A stretch of 46,904 nucleotides of DNA from Candidatus Woesearchaeota archaeon. Lineage in GTDB: Archaea > Nanobdellota > Nanobdellia > Pacearchaeales > GW2011-AR1. The notes beneath the pieces are model-generated. The model saw nothing but the letters and a program-made list of their open reading frames with translations. It had not been told where the DNA came from and made no database searches. How positions within the stretch are numbered: position 1 is the first letter of the stretch; the number at the start of each line of letters is the position of its first letter. The stretch is from assembly GCA_964481185.1 (NCBI GenBank), contig CAYZSY010000002.1, positions 1-46,904 of the forward strand, given 5' to 3'. Shown here in pieces: positions 1,170 through 44,718 of this stretch. The translations under genes and the position numbers were made by a program.

Positions 1170-1302
1170 TGATCCCACTGGGATTTGAACCCAGGACCCC
1201 CGCCTTTCCTAAATCTCCTTTGACCAGAAAGGAGGGAAAATATGGCTCTAATGAGCCATACTCTTATAAGAGCGGTGCTCTAACCAACTGAGCTATGGGA
1301 TC
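1170..1302 (-). tRNA. tRNA-Ile (anticodon UAU) with 59-nt intron at 37/38
   Basis: Reverse complement: acceptor GATCCCA/TGGGATC, D arm GCTC-AGTTGGTTA-GAGC, anticodon stem CCGCT/GGCGG, loop CTTATA..A, T arm CTGGG-TTCAAAT-CCCAG. Loop nt CTTA pair with TAGG at the intron 3' end, leaving a 3-nt AAA bulge (BHB-like). The intron has hairpins ATGGCTC-ATTA-GAGCCAT and CTCCTTT-CTGGTC-AAAGGAG. Confidence 0.8.
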
Positions 1303-4326: not shown

Positions 4327-4737
4327 ATGAGGTATGAAGAAGCTTTAGACTTGAAAGAGAGGATGATTGACATTGTCAAGACTCTTGAAATGAACCATAT
4401 AGACTTGAATAGAATTGAATGCCTTAGAAGTTTTGGCTCTTCAACAAGAAGGACTATCGCAAGATGCCATGCACTTGGTAAGGTCATGCAAAAGGCAATG
4501 AGAACAAGGGCTTTTTATACAATTGAATTTCTTGAGAGGTTTGATAAAATGAAAAAAGAGGAGCAGGACAAAGTAATAATTCACGAGCTCTTGCACGTGC
4601 CAAGAACATTTGGGGGTGGCTTTAGACAGCACGATTTTGTCTGCGAGAAAAACATAGAGATACTTTATGATAAATTCATGGAGGCAAAGGACGAAATAAA
4701 GAGTGATGGAAAAAATAAAAATTGGTTTTGGAAATAA
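4327..4737 (+). CDS. predicted Zn metallopeptidase (HExxH)
   Basis: 136 aa with IIHELLHVPRTFGGGF. Size and motif resemble the small archaeal predicted-metallopeptidase family (COG4900-like, from memory). Confidence 0.55.
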   Translation: MRYEEALDLKERMIDIVKTLEMNHIDLNRIECLRSFGSSTRRTIARCHALGKVMQKAMRTRAFYTIEFLERFDKMKKEEQDKVIIHELLHVPRTFGGGFRQHDFVCEKNIEILYDKFMEAKDEIKSDGKNKNWFWK

Positions 4738-8077: not shown

Positions 8078-11000
8078 ATGATTGCTAAATCTAGCGAGGA
8101 AAAAGAGAGATCTTACAAGTCTGAGCATATAAAAGTACTTGAAGGATTAACAGCGGTGCGTATGAGGCCAGCGATGTACATAGGAAGCACCAGCAAGATG
8201 GGACTGCATCATTTAGTTTATGAGGTTGTTGATAATTCTGTTGATGAAGCTATGGCGGGTTATTGCGATTCTATTGTTGTTTCCATAAATAAGAATGGGA
8301 GTATAACTGTAACTGATAACGGGAGGGGAATCCCTGTTGAACCGCACCCAATTTATAAAAAACCTGCATTGGAAATTGTTGTTACAAAGCTTCATGCTGG
8401 AGGCAAGTTTGAAAAAGGAAGCTACAAGGTTTCTGGAGGTCTGCATGGTGTTGGAATAAGTGTTGTTGCTGCATTATCTAAGCTGATGAAAGCAGTTGTA
8501 AAAAGAGGCGGTAAGATATATCAGCAGGAATATAAAATTGGAAAGCCACAATATGATGTAAAAGTTGTCGGCAGTTGTGATAAAGATGATACAGGCACCG
8601 AAGTAACTTTTTTTCCAGATGAAAACATATTTTCAACAACAAAATTTGAATTTTCCATTTTAGAAAATAGACTTAGAGAGATTGCATTCCTAAATAAAGG
8701 TGTTAAAATTGTTCTTGAAGATGATGAATCAAAGAAAAAAGAGACTTTTCATTATGATGGCGGTTTGATTGAATTTATAAAATGGGTAAATAGGAGCAAG
8801 GAGCCAGTGCATAAGCCTGTTTATTTTGTTAAAGAAGCAGAAGGGGTTACAATTGAGTGTGCTGTTCAATATAATTCTGGCTATCAGGAAAATGTCCTTA
8901 GTTTTGTAAACACAATAAATACTGTTGAAGGCGGGACTCACGTTGTTGGTTTTAAAACTGCGCTTACAAGGGCAATAAACGATTACGCAAATAAAAATAA
9001 ACTGATAAAAGAGAATCTCACTGGAGATGATGTTCGCGAGGGATTGACTGCAATTATTTCTGTAAAGGTTCCTGAGCCGCAGTTTGAGGGTCAGACAAAG
9101 ACAAAGCTTGGAAACAGCGAAATAAAAGGGATTGTTGACGGCATTGCAATGAAAATGCTTACAGAGTTCTTTGAGGAAAACCCTGCTGTTGCAAAGTCCA
9201 TCGTAAATAAATCTCTTGAGGCACAGAAAGCCAGAAATGCTGCAAGGAAAGCAAAAGAGCTTGTAAGGAGAAAAAGCGCGTTTGGTTTTGGGGGGCTTCC
9301 TGGAAAACTTGCAGACTGCTCAAAGAACAAGGCAGAAGAAACTGAATTATATCTTGTGGAAGGCGATAGTGCTGGGGGTTGTTTTGCAGGAAATGTCGAA
9401 GTGGCATTGGCTGATGGGAGAAATGTTTCTTTTGAAAAATTAGTTGAAGAAGCAAAAAATGGCAAGCAAAACTTTTGTTATGCAATCAAAGAAGATGGAA
9501 GCGTTGGAATAGAAAAAGTAACTAATCCGAGAATTACAAGAACAGATGCTTCTGTAATAAAAATAACATTAGATAATGGTGAAGAAATAACTTGCACACC
9601 AGATCATAAATTTATGTTAAGAGGTGGGACATATAAAGAAGCTAAAAATTTAACAAAAGAAGACTCTTTGATGCCGTTACACAAAAGAATCTCTAAAATC
9701 GGCGGAAGAATTACAATTGAGGGCTACGAAATGATATGGGATCAGAATAAAAACTGGATTTTTACACACATGCTTGCCGATGATTACAATCTAAGAAACA
9801 ATATTTATCCAAAGGAACAAGGAGATCATAAACACCATATAGATTTTAACAAGAGAAATAATAATCCGACAAATATTGTTAGGCTTTCTAAAGAAGGCCA
9901 TCTTATTTTGCATACTGAGAATTTGGTCAGGACATTGCACAGGGAAGATGTAAAAAGAAAGGCGGCAGAAGCGCATAAAAACCCGGAGTATAGAGAAAAA
10001 ATGAGCAATTGGGCAAAAAATCCCGAAGTTAGAATTATGATAAGTGAGAATAGTAAAAAACAATGGCAAGATGAGGATTATAAAAACTATATGAAAGAGA
10101 AATTCCTAGAGTTTTATAATTCTGACGAAGAGTATAGAAAGCGAAATAACGAGCTGCTTGATAAAAACCAAAAGGAATATTGGGCTAATCCGGAAAATAG
10201 AGAAAAAGCAGCTGAGAAAGTAAAAGAGTTCTTTAAGAATAATCCAGAAGCTAAGGAATATTTGTCAAATCTTGCCAAAGATCAGTGGAAAGATGAAGAA
10301 TTGATAATTTGGAGAAGACAAAAAACAATGGAGCAATGGACGCCAGAATTTAGACAACAACGAAAGATAGCTTATAACCAGACTTATTATAGAAAAACAA
10401 TTTCTTTGATGAAAAAAGTTATTGAAAAAGAAGGTAATTTGGATAACTTTGATAAGATAAGAATTCAAAACAATGATAAATCTATCTTGAGCCTTAATAC
10501 ATTCAACAAGAGATTTTTTGATAATAATAAGTCGAGAATGGTTGAGACTGTTCAAAATTGGAATCATAAAATTAGGAGTATTGAATTTTTGAAAGAGAAA
10601 ATTGGTGTTTATGATATTGAGGTTCCCAAAATGCACAATTTCGCTTTAGCATCTGGAGTTTTTGTCCATAATAGCGCGAAAATGGCGCGCAACAAGGAAT
10701 TTCAGGCAATTCTTCCATTGAAGGGTAAAATATTGAATGTAGAAAAAGCAAATCCCGTAAAGGTATTATCAAATGAAGAAATTTCCAATCTTATAACTGC
10801 GATTGGAACAGGAATAGGTGAGCAGTTTAAACCTGAGAGTTTGAGATATTCAAAAATTATAATTATGACTGATGCTGATGTTGATGGCGCGCATATTCGT
10901 ACATTGTTATTGACTTTCTTTTTCAGATTTATTCCTAAGTTAATAGATGATGGGCATTTATACATTGCAGTCTCTCCTTTGTACAGAATAAGAAAAAGAG

Positions 11001-11275
11001 GGGACCATTATGTTTATTCAGACGAAGAACTGAAAGATATTCTAAAGGAAATGGGTGGGAGCGTTGATGTACAAAGGTTTAAGGGGCTTGGAGAGATGAA
11101 TCCTGAGCAGCTTTGGGAGACAACTATGAACCCAAAAACGAGGTTGTTGAAAAAAGTTATTGTTGAAGATGCTGCTATTGCTGATGAGGTCTTCTCAAGA
11201 TTAATGGGGGAAGATGTTGAAGAGAGGAGGAAATTCATAGCAGAGAGAGCTCACGAAGCTCAAATTGATATTTAA
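8078..11275 (+). CDS. gyrB: DNA gyrase subunit B, interrupted by an in-frame intein
   Basis: 1065 aa. GHKL ATPase blocks ([21 protein letters not shown]), TOPRIM EGDSAGG then [26 protein letters not shown], and [12 protein letters not shown]. Removing residues 435-865 gives a normal ~634-aa GyrB. Confidence 0.95.
9380..10672 (+). mobile_element. GyrB intein (431 aa) with HNH-type endonuclease region
   Basis: Begins with Cys right after EGDSAGG ([13 protein letters not shown]) and has a block-B-like CTPDH. Ends [19 protein letters not shown] followed by Ser (SAK). The centre carries [29 protein letters not shown] (HNH, 9827-9913) plus NPE..(K/R)..W helical repeats. No LAGLIDADG motif seen. 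Confidence 0.85.
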
Positions 11276-16091: not shown

Positions 16092-16133
16092 AAAAATTTG
16101 ATATTTTTCCGCGTTTATAACATTTATTGTGAT

Positions 16134-16263
16134 ATAGAGCACAAACTATGACTTTTAAGTCATAGATGATTGTATAGTTTGTCTCTGTCTCCCAAAATCC
16201 TTTCAGATAAATCTGAGCAAACCATGGGCTTCAGCCCATGGTTAACACAAGGATTTTGTGATG
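16134..16263. ncRNA. candidate structured RNA / structured repeat, copy 1
   Basis: Non-coding. Domain 1 has long stem (C)AGAG-C-ACAAACTAT/ATAGTTTGT-CTCT enclosing hairpin GACT-TTTA-AGTC. Domain 2 has closing stem CAAAATCC/GGATTTTG enclosing TCAGA-TAAA-TCTGA and ACCATGGGC-TTCA-GCCCATGGT. Second copy at 44600-44718. Strand not determined. Confidence 0.5.
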
Positions 16264-16714: not shown

Positions 16715-17611
16715 TCAAAATCTCAAACCATCTTTCTTTAGTATCTCAATTAAAAATCTAACAAATGGATTAAGATTTCCAGTTTTGTGCGCTGTTTGAA
16801 GAACTCCATAATATCTAAACCTTCTTTTCTTTGGAATATTAATTAGAGGAAACTTATTTTTATGCATAATAAAATTCATCAATAGTCTACCAACTCTTCC
16901 ATTTCCATCTACAAATGGATGTATTCTCTCAAATTCTATGTGAAAATAAGAAGCTAAAATCAAGGGGTGTAATTTCTTCTTATTCGTTGAGTACCATCTT
17001 AGTAAAGATGCCATTAATTTATGCACTTCTTCTGGTTTTGGGGGGAGATGCATTCCAACTTTAACTCCAACATTCCGGTATATTCCTATCTGCTGCACAA
17101 GATAAGATTTTAATGTGTTTACTACGACCAGTCTATGTAAATTCAGAATAAATTCTTTAGTTATGTCTTTCTTATAATCAAGTATAAAATCAAATGCTTT
17201 TTTATAGTTTAGCACTTCATAAATCTCTCTCATTGATTTTTCTTTTGGGACAATTCCTTCAAACAATAAAAAGGAAGTTTCCTCAAAAGTTAAAGTATTT
17301 CCTTCTATACCTGTCGAGTCATAAGCAAAAAGAGAGCAAAAGGTTTCATACCTATTCTCATAATTTGCTTTTGGCTCCTTAGAAAAATCTCTTTTTACAC
17401 TCGCTAAAAATCTTAAGTCCTTGTCTGTTAATATTTCAGAAAAAATGTTTAATTTTTTGTCTGCTTCTTTCTCTTTAATTTTCAGTTTCTCTTTTGAGAG
17501 GTTAACTCCCAAGTACACTCTTTCTTTATCTGTCTTTTTGCCTCTTTTTACGCTCTTAACTCTGTAATAATACTTCTTACTGCCTCTTTCTTTTATCTCA
17601 TTATAAACCAC
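16715..17611 (-). CDS. Fic-domain protein (AMPylase-type, N-terminal inhibitory motif)
   Basis: 298 aa, GTG start. Canonical Fic motif HPFVDGNGRVGR. An upstream STGIEGN fits the (S/T)xxxE(G/N) auto-inhibitory helix of class II Fic proteins. Confidence 0.85.
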   Translation of the reverse strand: MVYNEIKERGSKKYYYRVKSVKRGKKTDKERVYLGVNLSKEKLKIKEKEADKKLNIFSEILTDKDLRFLASVKRDFSKEPKANYENRYETFCSLFAYDSTGIEGNTLTFEETSFLLFEGIVPKEKSMREIYEVLNYKKAFDFILDYKKDITKEFILNLHRLVVVNTLKSYLVQQIGIYRNVGVKVGMHLPPKPEEVHKLMASLLRWYSTNKKKLHPLILASYFHIEFERIHPFVDGNGRVGRLLMNFIMHKNKFPLINIPKKRRFRYYGVLQTAHKTGNLNPFVRFLIEILKKDGLRF

Positions 17612-17692: not shown

Positions 17693-17804
17693 CGCCCCAA
17701 CCGGCTCAGAGATTGATATCTCTGGGACTTCAACTCCAGTGGAGATTGAAGTGAATCAGACATGTCCGATTCAAGAGTTGGGAATGGACTTACAGTCCAT
17801 TAAA
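17693..17804 (-). other. tRNA-Asp 3'-end duplicate plus triple-hairpin cloverleaf-like element
   Basis: CGCCCCAACCGG (17693-17704) exactly repeats 17805-17816, the T-stem/acceptor/discriminator of tRNA-Asp. CCCAAC (17696-17701) pairs with GTTGGG (17777-17782), enclosing three hairpins at 17707-17724, 17728-17751 and 17752-17773. A fourth hairpin, ATGGACT-TAC-AGTCCAT, lies at 17784-17800. Confidence 0.6.
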
Positions 17805-17877
17805 CGCCCCAACCGGGAATCGGACCCGGATCTCATCCGCGACAGGGATGTGTACTGAACCATTATACGATTGAGGC
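17805..17877 (-). tRNA. tRNA-Asp (anticodon GUC)
   Basis: Reverse complement: acceptor GCCTCAA/TTGGGGC, D arm GTAT-AATGGTTCA-GTAC, anticodon arm CATCC-CTGTCGC-GGATG, T arm CCGGG-TCCGATT-CCCGG, discriminator G. TATA-like TTTTAAAAA lies about 30 nt upstream. Confidence 0.9.
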
Positions 17878-17926
17878 ACGATAATGGTTGGCTGGAGTGA
17901 TTTTTAAAACTTACTTTTTGTTTGTT

Positions 17927-18175
17927 TTATTGCTCGTCTTTGTGATAGAAATCCAACAAGTAAATGGTTTTTATATTCTTATTATAAGAATATGATAGTC
18001 TCGATGATCTAATGTAAACTTCTCGCGTTCCTTTTCTGTCAAATTTCATAGGTTTGCCTATTTCAGGATTATTTGCTATCTTGAATAATATCTTCTCGAT
18101 TCTTTCTCTCATAAACGCATCTTTTATTTTGGAAACAACCCTCTTATAATTATCTGAAAATATTAATTTTACCAT
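17927..18175 (-). CDS. RelE/ParE-family type II toxin
   Basis: 82 aa. Size, basic composition, the C-terminal IYLLDFYHKDEQ-type ending and a 7-nt overlap with the upstream antitoxin gene fit RelE/ParE. Confidence 0.65.
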   Translation of the reverse strand: MVKLIFSDNYKRVVSKIKDAFMRERIEKILFKIANNPEIGKPMKFDRKGTREVYIRSSRLSYSYNKNIKTIYLLDFYHKDEQ

Positions 18176-18438
18176 GTCTTCATTTCTTTTATGAAGTCAT
18201 CAAATTCCATAGTAGTACACTTTCCTGCCTCTATTTCTTTCCATGCTTCTTCTGTTCTTCTTGCAAATTCCAAATCTTCTTTCAATTGTTTGTCCATTTT
18301 GCTAGCCTTCTTAATAATTATTTGATTACCATTTTTTATGATAACCAATTTCTCACCTTCTTTTATGTCTTTTCTCATATCAAGAGGTATTACAACTTGC
18401 CCCTTTGAACTCATCCTTGTTATATCCATCTCCGCCAT
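18169..18438 (-). CDS. AbrB/MazE/SpoVT-family antitoxin
   Basis: 89 aa. N-terminal SSKGQVVIPLDMRKDIKEGEKLVI is the swapped-hairpin AbrB/SpoVT DNA-binding motif. Confidence 0.75.
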   Translation of the reverse strand: MAEMDITRMSSKGQVVIPLDMRKDIKEGEKLVIIKNGNQIIIKKASKMDKQLKEDLEFARRTEEAWKEIEAGKCTTMEFDDFIKEMKTW

Positions 18439-18525
18439 AGTAAGACTATTCTTACTACATATTTAAATCTTTCTTTTAAGAACAATGACTAGATAAAGAC
18501 TATTCTCTCTTTTTGTTTATTGAGT

Positions 18526-19440
18526 TTATTCTTTATCTTTAGCCTGGTTCTTACTTAAACTTTCAGTCCAGAAACTTGGCAATGAATGTGAAACAGCTCC
18601 TTCAAAGTCTGAATCAATAAGATAGACAAATCCTCTCTTGTCTCCTTCTAATTTCTTGAATGCAGAATCCGCTTTCTCGTAGAACTTCTTTATCTCGGGG
18701 CGCTCCATCTCTAACTGCAAGAGACTGCCTTGTTTTACAAGAAGCATATCCGAAAGCTTTAGAACATTCTTGTCTATCATTCCAGTGTTTTGTGTTATGA
18801 ATAAAACAGTAAGATTCTTGTGCCTTGCTATTGCGAGAATTCCTGCTAATCCTTTATTTGTTTTGCTCATACTATCTCTTGAGCCGAACGATATTGCTCC
18901 CTCATCAACTAGGAGTGCAGAGCCCTGAGGAGCATCTTCTATGTTTTCTATAGGGCTTATCCATTCGGGCATGTTCTCCTGGGAAACTCCAAGAACAAAG
19001 CATTTTCTTCCTGTTTTATGATGAATATTCTCAAGAAGCCTAAACCCAAGTGCGCTCTTTCCGCTTCCCCTCTTTCCAAATATAAGAGAGATTATTGAAT
19101 CTTCGTGGATTCTTTTCTCAGAAACTTGGTAATCTCCTGAAATTGCTTCTAAAACTTGAAGAGGGTCAAACATCGCTCTCTTTCCGTAAGTTGGGCTGCT
19201 TCTTAGCTTTCTTTTTTCAGAACTCTCTTTTATTTTTCTTGATGTAACTCTATAAAGAGAGCTTATTAATTTGCTTATTAACCACCATATTCTAGATGTA
19301 ACATTGTATATTCCTTTTATAGACTTGCTTATTAACCACCATATTCCCTTAAGAAGATACCAGATTCCAAGAAATATCCCTTTGAATATCCATCCAGTGA
19401 TTTTCCAAAGAAAATTTATCTGCTGCCTTTTCCTCGTCAT
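18526..19440 (-). CDS. membrane-anchored P-loop NTPase (FtsK/HerA- or Zot-like)
   Basis: 304 aa. Hydrophobic Trp-rich N-terminus with an 18-aa tandem repeat, Walker A GKRGSGKS, Walker B ALLVDEG, then ARHKNLTVLFITQN. Its ATG overlaps the TAA of the upstream gene by 1 nt. Confidence 0.65.
   Translation of the reverse strand: MTRKRQQINFLWKITGWIFKGIFLGIWYLLKGIWWLISKSIKGIYNVTSRIWWLISKLISSLYRVTSRKIKESSEKRKLRSSPTYGKRAMFDPLQVLEAISGDYQVSEKRIHEDSIISLIFGKRGSGKSALGFRLLENIHHKTGRKCFVLGVSQENMPEWISPIENIEDAPQGSALLVDEGAISFGSRDSMSKTNKGLAGILAIARHKNLTVLFITQNTGMIDKNVLKLSDMLLVKQGSLLQLEMERPEIKKFYEKADSAFKKLEGDKRGFVYLIDSDFEGAVSHSLPSFWTESLSKNQAKDKE
19271..19346 (-). repeat. 54-bp in-frame tandem duplication inside the ATPase N-terminus
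   Basis: TTGCTTATTAACCACCATATTC occurs at 19271-19292 and 19325-19346. It encodes IWWLISKSIKGIYNVTSR / IWWLISKLISSLYRVTSR. Confidence 0.8.
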
Positions 19441-20279
19441 TATTTTAACCTCACTTTGTTTGTATTTCCAAAAGGAATTTTCTCAATAAGGTTTCTTGCT
19501 TCTAGGTTTCTGATAACTCTGCTTAGTTTGGCCTTAGAAAATCCAGTGCTTAATTGCAACTGCTTTTGCCATAATTCTCCTCTGTCGGATTTTCTTAGAT
19601 TGTCTAGGATTTTCTTTTCAGCATCAACAAGATGCTTGTCAATCTCTGAGCTGTTTGATGTTTTCTTTGTTTTCCCTGCTAGTTTTGAATATGCATAATA
19701 TATTCCAAATAAAACTATTAAAATAGCCGGAATAATCCATGTAAATGTGTTTATGCCAGAATTTCTGGTTTTTATAGAAATGAAGAAAGGAAAATCGTCT
19801 CCTCTCTTTATATTATTTAACTCCCAAATAACAAATATCTGCTCTCCATCTGTTTCTGTCTTAAAATTATCTGGGAATATCTTCTCTGATTCAAGAGAGT
19901 TGCCTTCTTCAATAGCTATCTTTATTGTAACTTTTGCGAAATCTTCGTTGAAAACAATTTTATCAATAAGATAGTAACCTCCTGCAATTTTTGATAATAA
20001 GTTCTGAGAGAGATAACTGATTCTGATGTTTTTTCCTTTTATTATTAGGTTTTTATCTTCAAGCGAGTAGTTTAAATTGGAAGAGATTGAATGGGCATCA
20101 CTCGGCAGAGAGATTGATATCTCTTTTTCACTCTCAAAATTGATTTTTTGATCTACAAGAACTTTTTCACCTATTTGATTAAATACTATCTCGGAGCTTT
20201 GCGCAGAAGCCAGAGAGATGAAACTAACTAGGACTAATACAGAACAGATTAACCTGGCTTTAGAGTTCATATATGGCAT
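19440..20279 (-). CDS. membrane-associated winged-HTH protein (signal peptide, extracellular domain, TM, cytoplasmic wHTH)
   Basis: Start chosen at ATG 20279 (MPYMNSKARLICSVLVLVSFISLASAQ); the longer track ORF overlaps the divergent gene at 20330. TM helix WIIPAILIVLFGIYYAY. C-terminal ILDNLRKSDRGELWQKQLQLSTGFSKAKLSRVIRNLEARNLIEK is MarR/wHTH-like (COG2512-type architecture, from memory). Confidence 0.6.
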   Translation of the reverse strand: MPYMNSKARLICSVLVLVSFISLASAQSSEIVFNQIGEKVLVDQKINFESEKEISISLPSDAHSISSNLNYSLEDKNLIIKGKNIRISYLSQNLLSKIAGGYYLIDKIVFNEDFAKVTIKIAIEEGNSLESEKIFPDNFKTETDGEQIFVIWELNNIKRGDDFPFFISIKTRNSGINTFTWIIPAILIVLFGIYYAYSKLAGKTKKTSNSSEIDKHLVDAEKKILDNLRKSDRGELWQKQLQLSTGFSKAKLSRVIRNLEARNLIEKIPFGNTNKVRLK

Positions 20280-20329
20280 TTTATGAAAGCAAAGCTCGTA
20301 TTTAAATATTTTAATTTTCTTAAATTGAT

Positions 20330-20575
20330 ATGGGCAGAAAGAAGAGGGTTGCAAAAATACCAAAAAATGTGCTTCTTAAATGCCCAATTTGTTCTATGAA
20401 AAGCAGGGCGATTGTATCTATTGACAACTGCCCGCAGTCTTTCATATGCCCAAAATGCAATGCAGAAGTCAAAAATCCTCTTACTTCTTGCTGTGTTATA
20501 TGCGCATTCTCTGGGAAGAAGTGTCCTAGAACTCTTTTTGCTGAAGCGAGAGTTAAAGGGCTTGAATTGAGATAG
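20330..20575 (+). CDS. Cys-rich zinc-ribbon protein
   Basis: 81 aa with CPIC...CPKC and then CCVIC...KC spacing. Confidence 0.45.
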   Translation: MGRKKRVAKIPKNVLLKCPICSMKSRAIVSIDNCPQSFICPKCNAEVKNPLTSCCVICAFSGKKCPRTLFAEARVKGLELR

Positions 20576-21215: not shown

Positions 21216-22055
21216 ATGGTTATAAAAGGAGATTTTAGATTAAAAAGTCTTTATGTTTTTATATTTCTTGTAGCTGTTGCAATAGTTCTTTTTGGAGCTT
21301 TTGCTATGATGGTTGCAAGGACAGATGTTAATATTATATCAGGAGCGGTTTCTGTAATAAAATCTACTATCTCTGGTTCTATTAGCGCTTCTCTTGCAAA
21401 GATAGAGGGCAGTTCGTTAAGAATGTATAGGGTTGCAATAATAGAGAGCATTGTTCTTATAACAGGAATAATTACTTCATTATTTGGCCTTCTTTATTTA
21501 TTTAAACATTATTATCTGACTGTACAGCTTTCTCTTATAGACGAACTGACAAGACTCTATAACAGAAGGGCTCTCTATAAAATTCTTGATGTTGAGATAA
21601 AGAGGGCAAAGAGGTTTAAGCATCCCCTTACCATTCTTATGGCTGATATTGACTTCTTTAAAGTGTATAATGACACAAACGGACATGTGGCTGGAGATGT
21701 TTTGTTGCAAAAAATATCCAAGATGATGCAGGAAAGCATAAGAGATATTGATACAATTGGAAGATATGGCGGGGAGGAGTTTCTGGCAATACTTCCAGAG
21801 ACATCACATAAAAATGCAGCCAGAATTGCAGAAAGAATAAGAAAGAAAATTGAGAACGGCAAGTTTAAGGGGCAGGAAAAACAGCCGCTTGGAAAAGTTA
21901 CTTTAAGTCTTGGGCTTGCTACATTCCACGGAGACTATAAAGAAGGAACGCAGTTAATACATTCTGCTGATCAATTATTATATGAAGCAAAGCGGGCAGG
22001 AAGAAATCAGGTTAAAAAAGCATATTTCGGTAGGGTTGATAAGGGAGAAGATTAA
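21216..22055 (+). CDS. membrane-anchored GGDEF diguanylate cyclase
   Basis: 279 aa. Two N-terminal TM helices, then LTRLYNRRAL, DIDFFKVYNDTNGHVAGD, active site GGEEF (21768-21782), I-site RDID five residues upstream (21741-21752), and C-terminal ADQLLYEAKRAGRNQV. Confidence 0.9.
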   Translation: MVIKGDFRLKSLYVFIFLVAVAIVLFGAFAMMVARTDVNIISGAVSVIKSTISGSISASLAKIEGSSLRMYRVAIIESIVLITGIITSLFGLLYLFKHYYLTVQLSLIDELTRLYNRRALYKILDVEIKRAKRFKHPLTILMADIDFFKVYNDTNGHVAGDVLLQKISKMMQESIRDIDTIGRYGGEEFLAILPETSHKNAARIAERIRKKIENGKFKGQEKQPLGKVTLSLGLATFHGDYKEGTQLIHSADQLLYEAKRAGRNQVKKAYFGRVDKGED

Positions 22056-24730: not shown

Positions 24731-25150
24731 TCAAACATCAAGGACAAACTGAATTGTTGTTTTGTCCTTTTCTTCTTCTATGAACATGTCGTTGTATGTT
24801 ATTGCTTTTACGTCGTTTGTGAAAATGTAATTTCCTGCGCTGTCTCCTATTAGATTTGCCTTAAGAATAAAGCCTTCTTTTGATTCTTCTATCTTAACAA
24901 TCGGCGCCTTGCTTATAATGTAGTCTTCTGCATCTGCAAGGTAGATAATGCTTTCAAGAAATTTGTATAACAAAGCACCCTTATCTCTGCCTTCTGCGCT
25001 TATATCCTTCTTAATCTTTGGAGCAACTTTTATCTGCTCGGCCATTACTTCTTTTAAAGCCATAGCTGAAGTCGAGAAAGCTTTCTCGATAGTTCTTTCT
25101 TCTACTAATATCTTAACATCTGCCGTATGTTCTAGGAACTTGAAACCCAT
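24731..25150 (-). CDS. archease (RtcB activator)
   Basis: 139 aa. The N-terminus MGFKFLEHTADVKILVE and overall size are typical of archease. Confidence 0.85.
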   Translation of the reverse strand: MGFKFLEHTADVKILVEERTIEKAFSTSAMALKEVMAEQIKVAPKIKKDISAEGRDKGALLYKFLESIIYLADAEDYIISKAPIVKIEESKEGFILKANLIGDSAGNYIFTNDVKAITYNDMFIEEEKDKTTIQFVLDV

Positions 25151-43557: not shown

Positions 43558-44376
43558 ATGACAAATAGTACTGAAAATCAGGAGAAGTACCAAGCATTTT
43601 TTGATGCAATGGATGAGTTAAGCAGGGCTGACAAACTTAACGAGCAGGCTGCAAAAGACCCAAGATCAAAAGTGAAAGACAATGCTATTGATGACCTTGT
43701 GAAATATGCTCAAGAACGTGCACTTAAGGATGGTGTTGATAAGCTTCCAAATGACTTCTATAACCAAGATATTCAAAAATATATTGGATTGAGATCAAGC
43801 GAGGCAAATGAGAGATCTGCAAATATACTATCCGGTAATCTTGAATCAATTGTTAATGAGATACCTAGTGATAAATTATCAAAACTTGCCGGAAGCAAAG
43901 AGATTGCTGAAAGAGTAGAAGGAGAAGATATTTATGTTCTTGGCGCATATAGACAATGGAAATCTTATGAAGGTTTTAAGGAAAAATACGAGAAAGGCGA
44001 GCCAATATCTGGAGATGAAGAAAAAATTATAGGCGGACTTCGTGAGATTGCCGCAAGAAGCCTTGGAAATAAACTTGCAGAAAAAGTAAAAAATGAAGGA
44101 TACAGCAAAGATATACAAAATCAGTCAAGAGCACTTGCATATGCTGCAGTTCAGCATGGTTATGTTTCTGACATCAAAGAGGATGTTTTGTCTGGATTAG
44201 AAAAACTTGCTGAAGAGCACAAGAAAAACTATGAGAAGATTGCTTATGAGAAAACTCCTGTTGAGGAAATATTCAGAAAGACTCTCAAGAAAATGGGAAG
44301 CGATAAAGATATAAAAGAATTTGAGCTTGCAAGAAACCTCGTATACAAGATAGGTAAAGAAGATGACAAAGAATGA
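43558..44376 (+). CDS. hypothetical protein
   Basis: 272-aa helical, charged ORF. No motif recognised. Confidence 0.5.
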   Translation: MTNSTENQEKYQAFFDAMDELSRADKLNEQAAKDPRSKVKDNAIDDLVKYAQERALKDGVDKLPNDFYNQDIQKYIGLRSSEANERSANILSGNLESIVNEIPSDKLSKLAGSKEIAERVEGEDIYVLGAYRQWKSYEGFKEKYEKGEPISGDEEKIIGGLREIAARSLGNKLAEKVKNEGYSKDIQNQSRALAYAAVQHGYVSDIKEDVLSGLEKLAEEHKKNYEKIAYEKTPVEEIFRKTLKKMGSDKDIKEFELARNLVYKIGKEDDKE

Positions 44377-44599
44377 GATGAATGAAAATAGGTATTGCAA
44401 TGAAGCCCAAGATGAACTTAAGAATGTCTGGGATTTTGCAATAATGCAGTACGAGGGAGGCTTAAACAGAGAAGCAATATATGCAGCTGTAAGAGGAAGC
44501 CATCGTTTTAGAAAATTTTCTGGGGCAAAGACAGACTTTTATATGGAAATGAGATCTCATATAGAAAAGGCCATTGATTCTGTTGATTCTAAACTTTGA
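44363..44599 (+). CDS. hypothetical protein
   Basis: 78-aa ORF overlapping the upstream ORF by 14 nt. Confidence 0.4.
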   Translation: MTKNEMNENRYCNEAQDELKNVWDFAIMQYEGGLNREAIYAAVRGSHRFRKFSGAKTDFYMEMRSHIEKAIDSVDSKL

Positions 44600-44718
44600 T
44601 ACAGAGCACAAACTATGACTTTTAAGTCATAGATAATTGCATAGTTTGTCTCTGTCTCTCAAAGTCCAAACAAACCTTGGCTTTTAAGCCAAGGTAAAAT
44701 ACAAGGACTTTTTGATGT
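44600..44718. ncRNA. candidate structured RNA / structured repeat, copy 2
   Basis: The first ~67 nt are about 92% identical to 16134-16200. The 3' half keeps closing stem CAAAGTCC/GGACTTTG and hairpin ACCTTGGCT-TTTA-AGCCAAGGT with compensated substitutions relative to copy 1. It lacks the TCAGA-TAAA-TCTGA hairpin. Confidence 0.5.

Follow-up and report, generated by a model that had tools for sequence, protein, structure and literature searches.

The question raised by this locus is why a non-coding segment of about 130 nt occurs twice in an archaeal contig, 28 kb apart, and keeps its predicted pairing where its sequence has diverged. The stretch analysed (46,904 nt in full, hereafter the window) comes from a Candidatus Woesearchaeota archaeon (assembly GCA_964481185.1, contig CAYZSY010000002.1, positions 1 to 46,904), and the two segments are called copy 1 and copy 2. 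The original prediction took them for a structured RNA gene in two copies. In this study, we found at least 12 dispersed members in one small genome, nine of them near-identical and with their modules shuffled, which a two-copy RNA gene does not fit. We propose that copies 1 and 2 are non-autonomous, gene-less elements resembling palindrome-associated transposable elements (PATEs) and moved in trans by an IS200/IS605-type transposase, a reading to which we assign a probability of about 0.6. That the family is a mobile non-autonomous repeat in general is highly probable.

Both segments were present where they had been predicted, and their cores each occurred exactly twice in the window (25-mer, 0.00 expected by chance; 18-mer, 0.07 expected by chance). 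Pairwise alignment of the two copies gave a 71-nt block at 93% identity (16130-16200 against 44597-44667), close to the 92% predicted for the 5' half. The places of the segments stood, but their extents shifted slightly: the boundaries set by the tool were 16134-16262 and 44601-44716, as against 16134-16263 and 44600-44718 in the original prediction. The ends of copy 1 were set by alignment of nine loci, whose flanks part exactly at 16134 and 16262.

Many public assemblies break inside copy 1. Therefore, a repeat was suspected, and metagenome contigs (labelled here L with a number) were scanned with the 17-mer TAGTTTGTCTCTGTCTC. Among 70 matches, 12 were true and represented 8 further loci with unrelated flanks. 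The loci were assigned to the genome of the window because their flanking proteins match the same metagenome-assembled genome (MAG), NCBI GCA_018304255.1, a 'Candidatus Pacearchaeota archaeon' with locus tags J4229_ from Rifle-type groundwater, which the window proteins also match. The proteins beside L109, L115, and L147 were exact matches to proteins of this MAG, those beside L123 and L124 had a co-member of the same 90% cluster in it, and L277 and L281, which carry two of the loci, are contigs of the MAG itself. This genome of ~1 Mb (GC 35.5%) therefore holds at least 12 family loci, nine of which are of the copy 1 type at 97% identity or more, and the copies lie at mutually unrelated intergenic sites. 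The 127-nt core was identical at three loci (copy 1 of the window, L093, and L115) and was off by 1-2 nt at L104, L109, L123, and L124. Members measured ~115-130 nt, and the variant L147b ~220 nt.

A covariance-model search, as suggested in the original prediction, was carried out with a model (R1) built from eight members. It scored copy 1 at 177.7 bits and copy 2 at 137.1 bits and found no further copy in the window or in ~204 kb of sequence, in agreement with sensitive blastn. Between the strains represented by L282 and L093, the element was invariant while the 3' flank carried three single nucleotide polymorphisms (SNPs). No empty site was found at strain level, as the three strain variants of two loci all hold the element. 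The MAG versions of three copies, at L001 ~2930 (copy 1), L281 11259 (the L123 copy), and L277 (the L115 copy), differed from the metagenome contigs: one had a 26-nt deletion in the 3' hairpin, another a 62-nt deletion from the gene end into the 5' domain, and the third two extra G. These altered copies probably arose through errors of assembly or polishing where repeats and hairpins occur, not through excision.

The conserved fold claimed for the pair was also recovered. The predicted fold of copy 1 was -48.0 kcal/mol (z = -6.84) and that of copy 2 -41.9 kcal/mol (z = -7.39), and for each copy none of 200 shuffles was as good; the reverse strands of both folded equally strongly. The four fully compensated pairs between the copies are real, consisting of an A-U to G-C change in the closing stem and three pairs altered on both arms of the 9-bp hairpin. 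The description of the closing stem was right about this swap but not about copy 2, in which the 3' arm is GGACTTTTTG and not GGACTTTG, and the outermost C-G pair needs a small internal loop. When the eight-member alignment was compared with the named structure, 96.9% of the cells were paired and nine pairs were changed on both sides. None of 500 shuffles reached these values, and slid controls were only 20-47% paired. Helices 1 and 2 were 97% and 91% paired, with two doubly changed pairs each, and one closing-stem pair (alignment columns 88/149) occurred in the three forms AU, GC, and CG. The sequence CTATGACT-TTTA-AGTCATAG in the 5' domain is a perfect 8-bp palindrome, whose pairing competes with that of the four uppermost pairs in the long stem. 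The earlier argument for selection on an RNA or single-stranded DNA fold rather than on a duplex protein palindrome is borne out by pairing that is kept through compensatory change. These results support a single-stranded fold, in RNA or DNA, as a better account of the kept pairing than a duplex protein site.

The young copies behave differently from the family as a whole. Among their five substitutions, two break a pair, one changes U-G to C-G, and two lie at unpaired positions; young copies thus behave neutrally. The expectation that extra copies would preserve pairing thus holds for the eight-member alignment but not for two of the five substitutions in young copies. The 3' module of copy 2 was 97-98% identical to L109 153-201/209 (minus strand), which is preceded by quite another 5' domain, GTCAAGGAACT...AGTTCCTTGAGC enclosing a CCACACC/GGTGTAG hairpin. 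L147 11295-11535 (minus strand) carries this second 5' domain, after it three additional hairpins, and last a third form of the 3' module. The pairings observed are 5' module A with 3' module 1 or 2, and 5' module B with 3' module 2 or 2'. Copy 2 is thus chimeric, with 5' module A joined to 3' module 2. Because its 3' half is a separate module that is found elsewhere on an unrelated 5' module, the compensation between copies 1 and 2 reflects divergence of modules at the level of the family, not slow drift of paralogous genes. A second hairpin-repeat type, tandem TCAAGRA...TYCTTGA arrays, was seen in the same genome at L104 6369-6420, L124 1417-1470, and L147 11355-11454, and none in the window; by eye, several of these hairpins seem to be closed by a further pair past a one-base bulge on the 3' side.

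The ends and flanks of the copies were then compared across loci. The flanks diverge right outside the element, which begins AC/AT-AGAGC after a left flank of the form ...[T][T/G][G/T/A]AT and ends in TTT[G/T]TGAT. Over 10 independent loci, the left flank ended in AT at all 10, in GAT at 7, and in TTGAT at 4, and the right end was GTGAT or TTGAT (KTGAT) in every copy. The 5' 'TGAT' was counted as flank because it varies among near-identical copies. No terminal inverted repeat (TIR) was found when the 5' end ACAGAGCAC was set against the reverse complement of the 3' end ATCACAAAA, nor one in register between ACAGAGCACAAAC and the 3'-end reverse complement ATCACAAAATCC. Direct repeats at the junctions ranged from 2 to 8 nt over the 10 loci with no target duplication of fixed length, and such variation is expected where the 3' end of an element resembles its target. 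A classical MITE (miniature inverted-repeat transposable element) with TIRs was rejected, as there is no TIR and the junction repeats vary in length. The inspection of flanks for target duplications and TnpA/TnpB-like genes, proposed together with the original prediction, accordingly gave a mixed answer: the pattern is that of a gene-less mobile element, but there is no fixed duplication and no TnpA or TnpB in the annotated regions.

The upstream gene stops at the TGA of the flank motif in copy 2, L116, and L123, which explains why these elements lie so close to the ends of open reading frames (ORFs); in copy 2 it is the TGA at 44597-44599, which ends a 78-aa ORF at 44363..44599. No upstream sequence that could serve as a promoter was common to the copies. 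Orientation was shared in all five contigs with two family members (chance 1/32), and the element strand was the G-rich strand at 10 of 12 loci, including every locus of 7 kb or more. The hairpin nearest each end lies ~12 nt from the left end and ~20 nt from the right end. In copy 2, the two resemble each other: ACAAAC-TATGACTTTTAAGTCATA-GATAA aligned with ACAAAC-CTTGGCTTTTAAGCCA-AGGTAA at a score of 32, which none of 2000 shuffles reached.

A scan of genome contigs gave one true relative outside this genome, at L076 3609-3700 in another Woesearchaeota MAG. Its outer 5' stem and linker are as here, while its loops are different and its 3' domain is short, and it lies upstream of an RPA-like gene. 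The orthologous site in the present genome (L123) is empty, with TTTGCGAT joined directly to ATCTAAAT, which matches the joined flanks of the L076 element. The comparison is between species ~70% identical, and a 2-nt AT duplication is compatible with it. A repeat on two contigs of a Lachnospiraceae MAG, returned by the same scan, was deemed unrelated by taxon and flanking sequence. Among the IMG/VR contigs (L021-L074), ~50 viral contigs carry the stem-loop CTATGACT-NNNN-AGTCATAG in a GGCCAC...CCCCA context; these matches to the 5' palindrome are unrelated to the archaeal element. A viral-contig match to the 3' tail proved to be phage coding sequence. About 600 nt past the 3' end of the window, at L011 6100-6150, two hairpins (AAAAGTTGC-CTT-GCAACTTTT and AAAAATC-TTT-GATTTTT) are followed by GATG; this pair has an end like the 3' tail of the family and is otherwise unrelated. 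The coordinates of the elements and their parts are given in Table 1.

Table 1. Positions of the elements, their parts, and their flanking motifs (window coordinates unless a contig is named).
Feature	Position	Strand	Composition or basis
Copy 1, type A/1 element, 129 nt	16134..16262	+	AT-AGAGC... to ...GGATTTTGTGAT
Copy 1 left flank, GTGAT, a target-like motif similar to a target-adjacent motif (TAM)	16129..16133	+	directly 5' of the element
Copy 1 5' domain	16136..16186	+	outer stem AGAG-(C bulge)-ACAAACTAT paired with ATAGTTTGT-CTCT
Copy 1 5'-domain hairpin, CTATGACT-TTTA-AGTCATAG	16146-16165	+	inside the outer stem, as is the spacer ATGATTGT
Copy 1 3' domain	16193..16262	+	closing stem CAAAATCC (16193-16200) paired with GGATTTTG (16251-16258)
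Copy 1 3'-domain hairpin, TTCAGA-TAAA-TCTGAG	16202-16217	+	within the closing stem
Copy 1 3'-domain hairpin, AACCATGGGC-TTCA-GCCCATGGTT	16220-16243	+	within the closing stem
Copy 1 terminal motif, GTGAT	16258-16262	+	end of the 3' domain
Copy 2, chimeric element, 116 nt	44601..44716	+	type-A 5' domain and type-2 3' domain
Copy 2 left flank, TTGAT	44596..44600	+	sequence and ORF map
Copy 2 5'-domain hairpin	44613-44632	+	predicted fold
Copy 2 3' domain	44660..44716	+	closing stem CAAAGTCC (44660-44667) paired with GGACTTT (44705-44711)
Copy 2 3'-domain hairpin, ACCTTGGCT-TTTA-AGCCAAGGT	44674-44695	+	within the closing stem
Copy 2 terminal motif, TTGAT	44712-44716	+	end of the 3' domain
Second element of L109, 5' module B and 3' module 2	L109 150-275	-	alignment

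The best reading of the kind of element is a PATE, in which the ends of an insertion sequence of the IS200/IS605 type are fused together. A Y1 (HUH) TnpA acting in trans would bind the two subterminal hairpins on the top (+) strand while this strand is single-stranded. Its cuts, 3' of the TTGAT-like motif in the flank and 3' of the KTGAT of the element, would free a single-stranded circle to be re-inserted 3' of another TTGAT-like site, by the peel-and-paste route demonstrated for ISDra2. The closing stem, in which TC..CAAAATCC pairs with the terminal GGATTTTG..GA, may act as an extended guide/cleavage-site pairing that places the right-end cut. The distance of 45-55 nt between the closing-stem arms would then be explained because an internal guide pairs with the cleavage site at the right end. 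Only copies that form their hairpins would be mobilised, and recent copies would simply decay; diverged modules would keep their pairing because copies without such hairpins could not be moved. Transposition of this kind would not require transcription. The copies placed after a stop codon (copy 2, L116, and L123) would lie in a 3' untranslated region (UTR), where the stem and T4-5 could aid termination or RNA stability, and an RNA role as a 3' UTR structure, a terminator, or an omega-RNA-like guide may coexist with mobility.

Several observations weigh against the PATE-like reading. No TnpA (PF01797), TnpB, or other transposase was found among the proteins of the 47-kb window, nor in L275 and L281 (42 kb), two other contigs of the genome; the annotated share comes to roughly 100 kb of ~1 Mb. 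A full-length parent would be expected to end in ...AAGGAYTTTTKTGAT, and no full-length element with these ends appeared in the metagenome, genome, and viral-contig scans. The left-flank motif is looser than the textbook IS200/IS605 target, its third base being G at only 7 of 10 loci, and the spacing of the hairpins is opposite to the usual one, in which the left distance exceeds the right (PMC3119063). The likeness of the two end hairpins was not significant in copy 1 (998 of 2000 shuffles) or in L109b (305 of 2000). The L123 site is the sole clean empty site, and in a genome that is not closed, gene-strand bias could give the same orientation pattern. The outer stems exceed what TnpA binding needs, which may indicate a role at the RNA level beside mobility.

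Two inserts linked to tRNA sequences were observed in the same genome. On the minus strand of the window (17693-17816), the last 12 nt of tRNA-Asp (17804-17878), CCGGTTGGGGCG, occur a second time 100 nt downstream. Between the two repeats lies a 100-nt insert that forms four hairpins, a layout like that of a mini-insertion into a tRNA 3' end, and the insert showed no significant sequence similarity to copies 1 and 2. In L275 (~16720-16840), a tRNA-like 3' end, ATTCCTCGTGGGCCCA, is repeated after a 68-nt insert of two hairpins that starts with AGGAATTGAAC, which is complementary to the T-arm; ARAGORN calls no tRNA there.

It is unlikely that the members are a multi-copy family of stand-alone genes for a structured small RNA transcribed from the + strand, or, in a variant, that the 3' domain alone is the RNA, started from a TATA-like TTTTAA that lies in the 5' hairpin loop and ended at the T-run. 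Such genes would account for the strong fold, the real covariation, and a stem followed by T4-5 at the 3' end, and by eye a TTTTAA/TTTAAA box lies ~25-30 nt upstream of the 3' domain in all four module combinations, although AT-rich loops are common at 35% GC. The invariance of the element between L282 and L093, next to a flank with three SNPs, is also as expected of a gene. However, the copies share no common upstream promoter, no Rfam family was reached at threshold, and substitutions in young copies break pairs as often as not. The evidence on strand conflicts, because the U-G to C-G change (pair 96/111) favours the + strand, whereas the C-A mismatch of L109b could form a wobble on the - strand alone. 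A scan for bacterial terminators flagged only minus-strand hairpins followed by TTTGT, a result that carries no information in an archaeon. An element with nine near-identical copies in unrelated places, a motif in its flank, and modules exchanged among its members bears the marks of mobile DNA. We consider improbable an archaeal counterpart of the bacterial REP/BIME/REPIN repeats, with hairpin modules spread and maintained by a domesticated single-copy RAYT-like (TnpA-REP) enzyme. Hairpin modules in mosaic combinations, the TCAAGRA...TYCTTGA tandem arrays, and asymmetric, bulged hairpins on one strand would agree with it, and it would allow a host role in termination or mRNA stability. The 5' GT[AG]G head is absent, though, since the elements start ACAGAG or ATGTCAAG; the amplified unit is the whole two-ended 129-nt element with its flank motif and not a single hairpin; and no RAYT gene was found in the annotated regions, RAYT classes not having been observed in Archaea (PMC6006769).

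A mini-element of a site-specific recombinase, such as a tyrosine or serine integrase or an IS110- or IS607-type enzyme, is likewise improbable. In this case, the (T)GAT/AT at the junctions would be a crossover core, and the internal segment complementary to the 3' end would help in the choice of site. AT stands at both junctions of every copy, and longer cores are seen in copy 1 (TTGTGAT), copy 2 (TTTGAT), L104 (TTTTTGAT), and L076 (GATATA). The 100-nt insert between 12-nt direct repeats at tRNA-Asp has the classic layout of an integrase product, as has the similar case in L275 with a 16-nt repeat. However, the tRNA-linked insert does not significantly resemble copies 1 and 2, the common core varies in length and is just 2 nt at 3 of 10 loci, an IS110 end that bears a bridge RNA is much longer than the element, and no recombinase was found in the annotated regions (window, L275, and L281). 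Quite unlikely, too, is a 'long-guide' form of single-strand transposon ends, in which an internal segment pairs with 8-12 nt of the 3' terminus of the element itself, or, alternatively, the transcription of the same scaffold as an omega-RNA-like guide for a TnpB acting in trans. The long-guide form is based on the pairing of TC..CAAAATCC with GGATTTTG..GA in copies 1 and 2, on a TTTTGAT-like target, and on a terminus that copies the preferred target; an analogue may be seen in the tRNA-Asp insert (17705-17804), where an internal CCCAAC pairs with the duplicated GTTGGG of the tRNA 3' end. If the extended pairing sets the insertion site, single-strand transposition in this family would be programmable by nature, and DPANN archaea would hold a naturally reprogrammable targeting system comparable to IS608 engineered with longer guides.

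The absence of a fit to known RNA families, noted in the original prediction, was confirmed in that nothing at the elements reached an Rfam threshold. Over the window, Rfam (4227 models) at gathering thresholds returned only six tRNAs. At relaxed E-values, nothing significant was obtained for either copy (rli52, 30.4 bits against a threshold of 70), and L147, L109, and L076 gave only tRNAs and chance matches. Other candidates were also rejected by eye. A C/D box or kink-turn has no UGAUGA/CUGA pair here, and the 5' 'TGAT' varies among near-identical copies; the pocket and ACA geometry of an H/ACA RNA are absent by eye. AAC/GTT cores as in an integron attC are present, but there is no cassette array or integrase. 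Template and variable repeats of a diversity-generating retroelement do not match, as the differences between the copies are not adenine-specific and the elements lie outside ORFs. For split-tRNA leaders and origin boxes, nothing fits by eye.

As for its genes, the window encodes gyrase B with an intein, gyrase A, RtcB, archease, a thermosome subunit, Kae1, L7Ae, and phosphoenolpyruvate (PEP) synthase. Gyrase B lies at 8078-11275 (+), with the intein splicing domain at residues 443-865, and the intein of RadA in L281 includes a LAGLIDADG domain. A 60-nt intron interrupts the tRNA at 1170-1302 (-), which was recognised by Rfam (58.3 bits) and missed by ARAGORN. The 279-aa product of 21216-22055 (+) combines a strong GGDEF diguanylate-cyclase domain (E = 9e-47) with a weak match to the Cas10 palm, which is unusual for an archaeon. 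Next to tRNA-Asp, the stretch 17927-20363 (-) holds a small toxin-antitoxin pair, then a Zot-like ATPase (weak match), and after it a membrane protein whose winged helix is DUF7343/MarR-like; at 4327-4737 there is a metallopeptidase of phage type. The genes at 17927-20363 and the metallopeptidase may be remnants of integrated elements. Two independent public assemblies (77 kb and 52 kb) end at ~24815, within the archease gene (24731-25150), where the window continues. This break could be strain variation or a join made only in the assembly of the window.

These results explain a covarying, RNA-like pair without a new class of RNA, and they show that two copies with compensatory changes can be misread if they are members of a mobile family. 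The genomes of DPANN archaea are tiny and thought to be poor in mobile elements. At least 12 hairpin elements, a second family of arrays, and repeated contig breaks at these sites in public assemblies matter for the assembly and annotation of DPANN genomes.

The family was compared with known systems. The PATEs of Haloquadratum walsbyi and other prokaryotes derive from IS605/IS1341-type transposons; they are without TIRs, carry near-terminal palindromes, make no target duplication, and leave no room for a transposase (PMC3119063). 'Homogeneous' PATE families with >90% identity stand beside heterogeneous relatives (PMC3119063), and PATE-like elements also occur in Geobacillus (PMC10055086). The present family shares with them the lack of TIRs, the near-terminal palindromes, a conserved terminal oligonucleotide, and a short 5' targeting sequence, and it too has homogeneous and heterogeneous members. 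All four features by which PATEs are described are found here or are not contradicted. It differs in its host, a DPANN archaeon (Pace-/Woesearchaeota) of ~35% GC, and in that no IS605-type transposon was detected nearby. In addition, an extra long stem surrounds each end, members exchange 5' and 3' modules, and the left hairpin lies nearer to its end than does the right hairpin.

IS200/IS605 is the most widespread insertion sequence family in archaea (PMC13343696). ISDra2 inserts 3' of TTGAT and uses single-stranded DNA only (PMC2806898), and both IS608 and ISDra2 target the lagging-strand template (PMC6006769). The elements resemble these two in their insertion 3' of a TTGAT-like motif, in subterminal hairpins on one strand, in the lack of TIRs and, apparently, of target-site duplications (TSDs), and in an apparent orientation bias; the placement on the G-rich strand in the same orientation fits targeting of the lagging-strand template. 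Unlike ISDra2 and IS608, they have no tnpA or tnpB, their flank motif is looser, and their 3' terminal motif resembles the target. IS608-type elements place the right-end cut by pairing between a guide and the cleavage site, over 4 nt in IS608, whereas the pairing between the internal segment and the 3' end is ~8-11 bp here. IS608 has also been engineered with extended guides (PMC5934647). With RF02998 (IS605-orfB-II), a motif of non-coding RNA associated with TnpB, the family shares a weak full-length alignment of a hairpin, GA..UUGUAUAG, and a long GC hairpin; the alignment had E-values of 0.66-9.4 in a 231-nt search and lay partly over flank that is not repeated, and membership was rejected because the scores, 17.9 and 12.4 bits, were far below the gathering score of 88.

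Dispersed intergenic hairpin repeats that are kept by compensatory change and are often mosaic are also known as REP/BIME/REPIN and bcr1. The bcr1 repeats of the Bacillus cereus group are structured and MITE-like. The elements described here differ in their archaeal host and in their lack of the GT[AG]G head and of a TIR or TSD such as that of bcr1, and no RAYT was seen. A 2018 survey of complete genomes observed no RAYT classes in Archaea, only the IS200-type class (PMC6006769). The family is best explained as a further member of the PATE-like elements, in a lineage for which we know of no earlier description of such elements.

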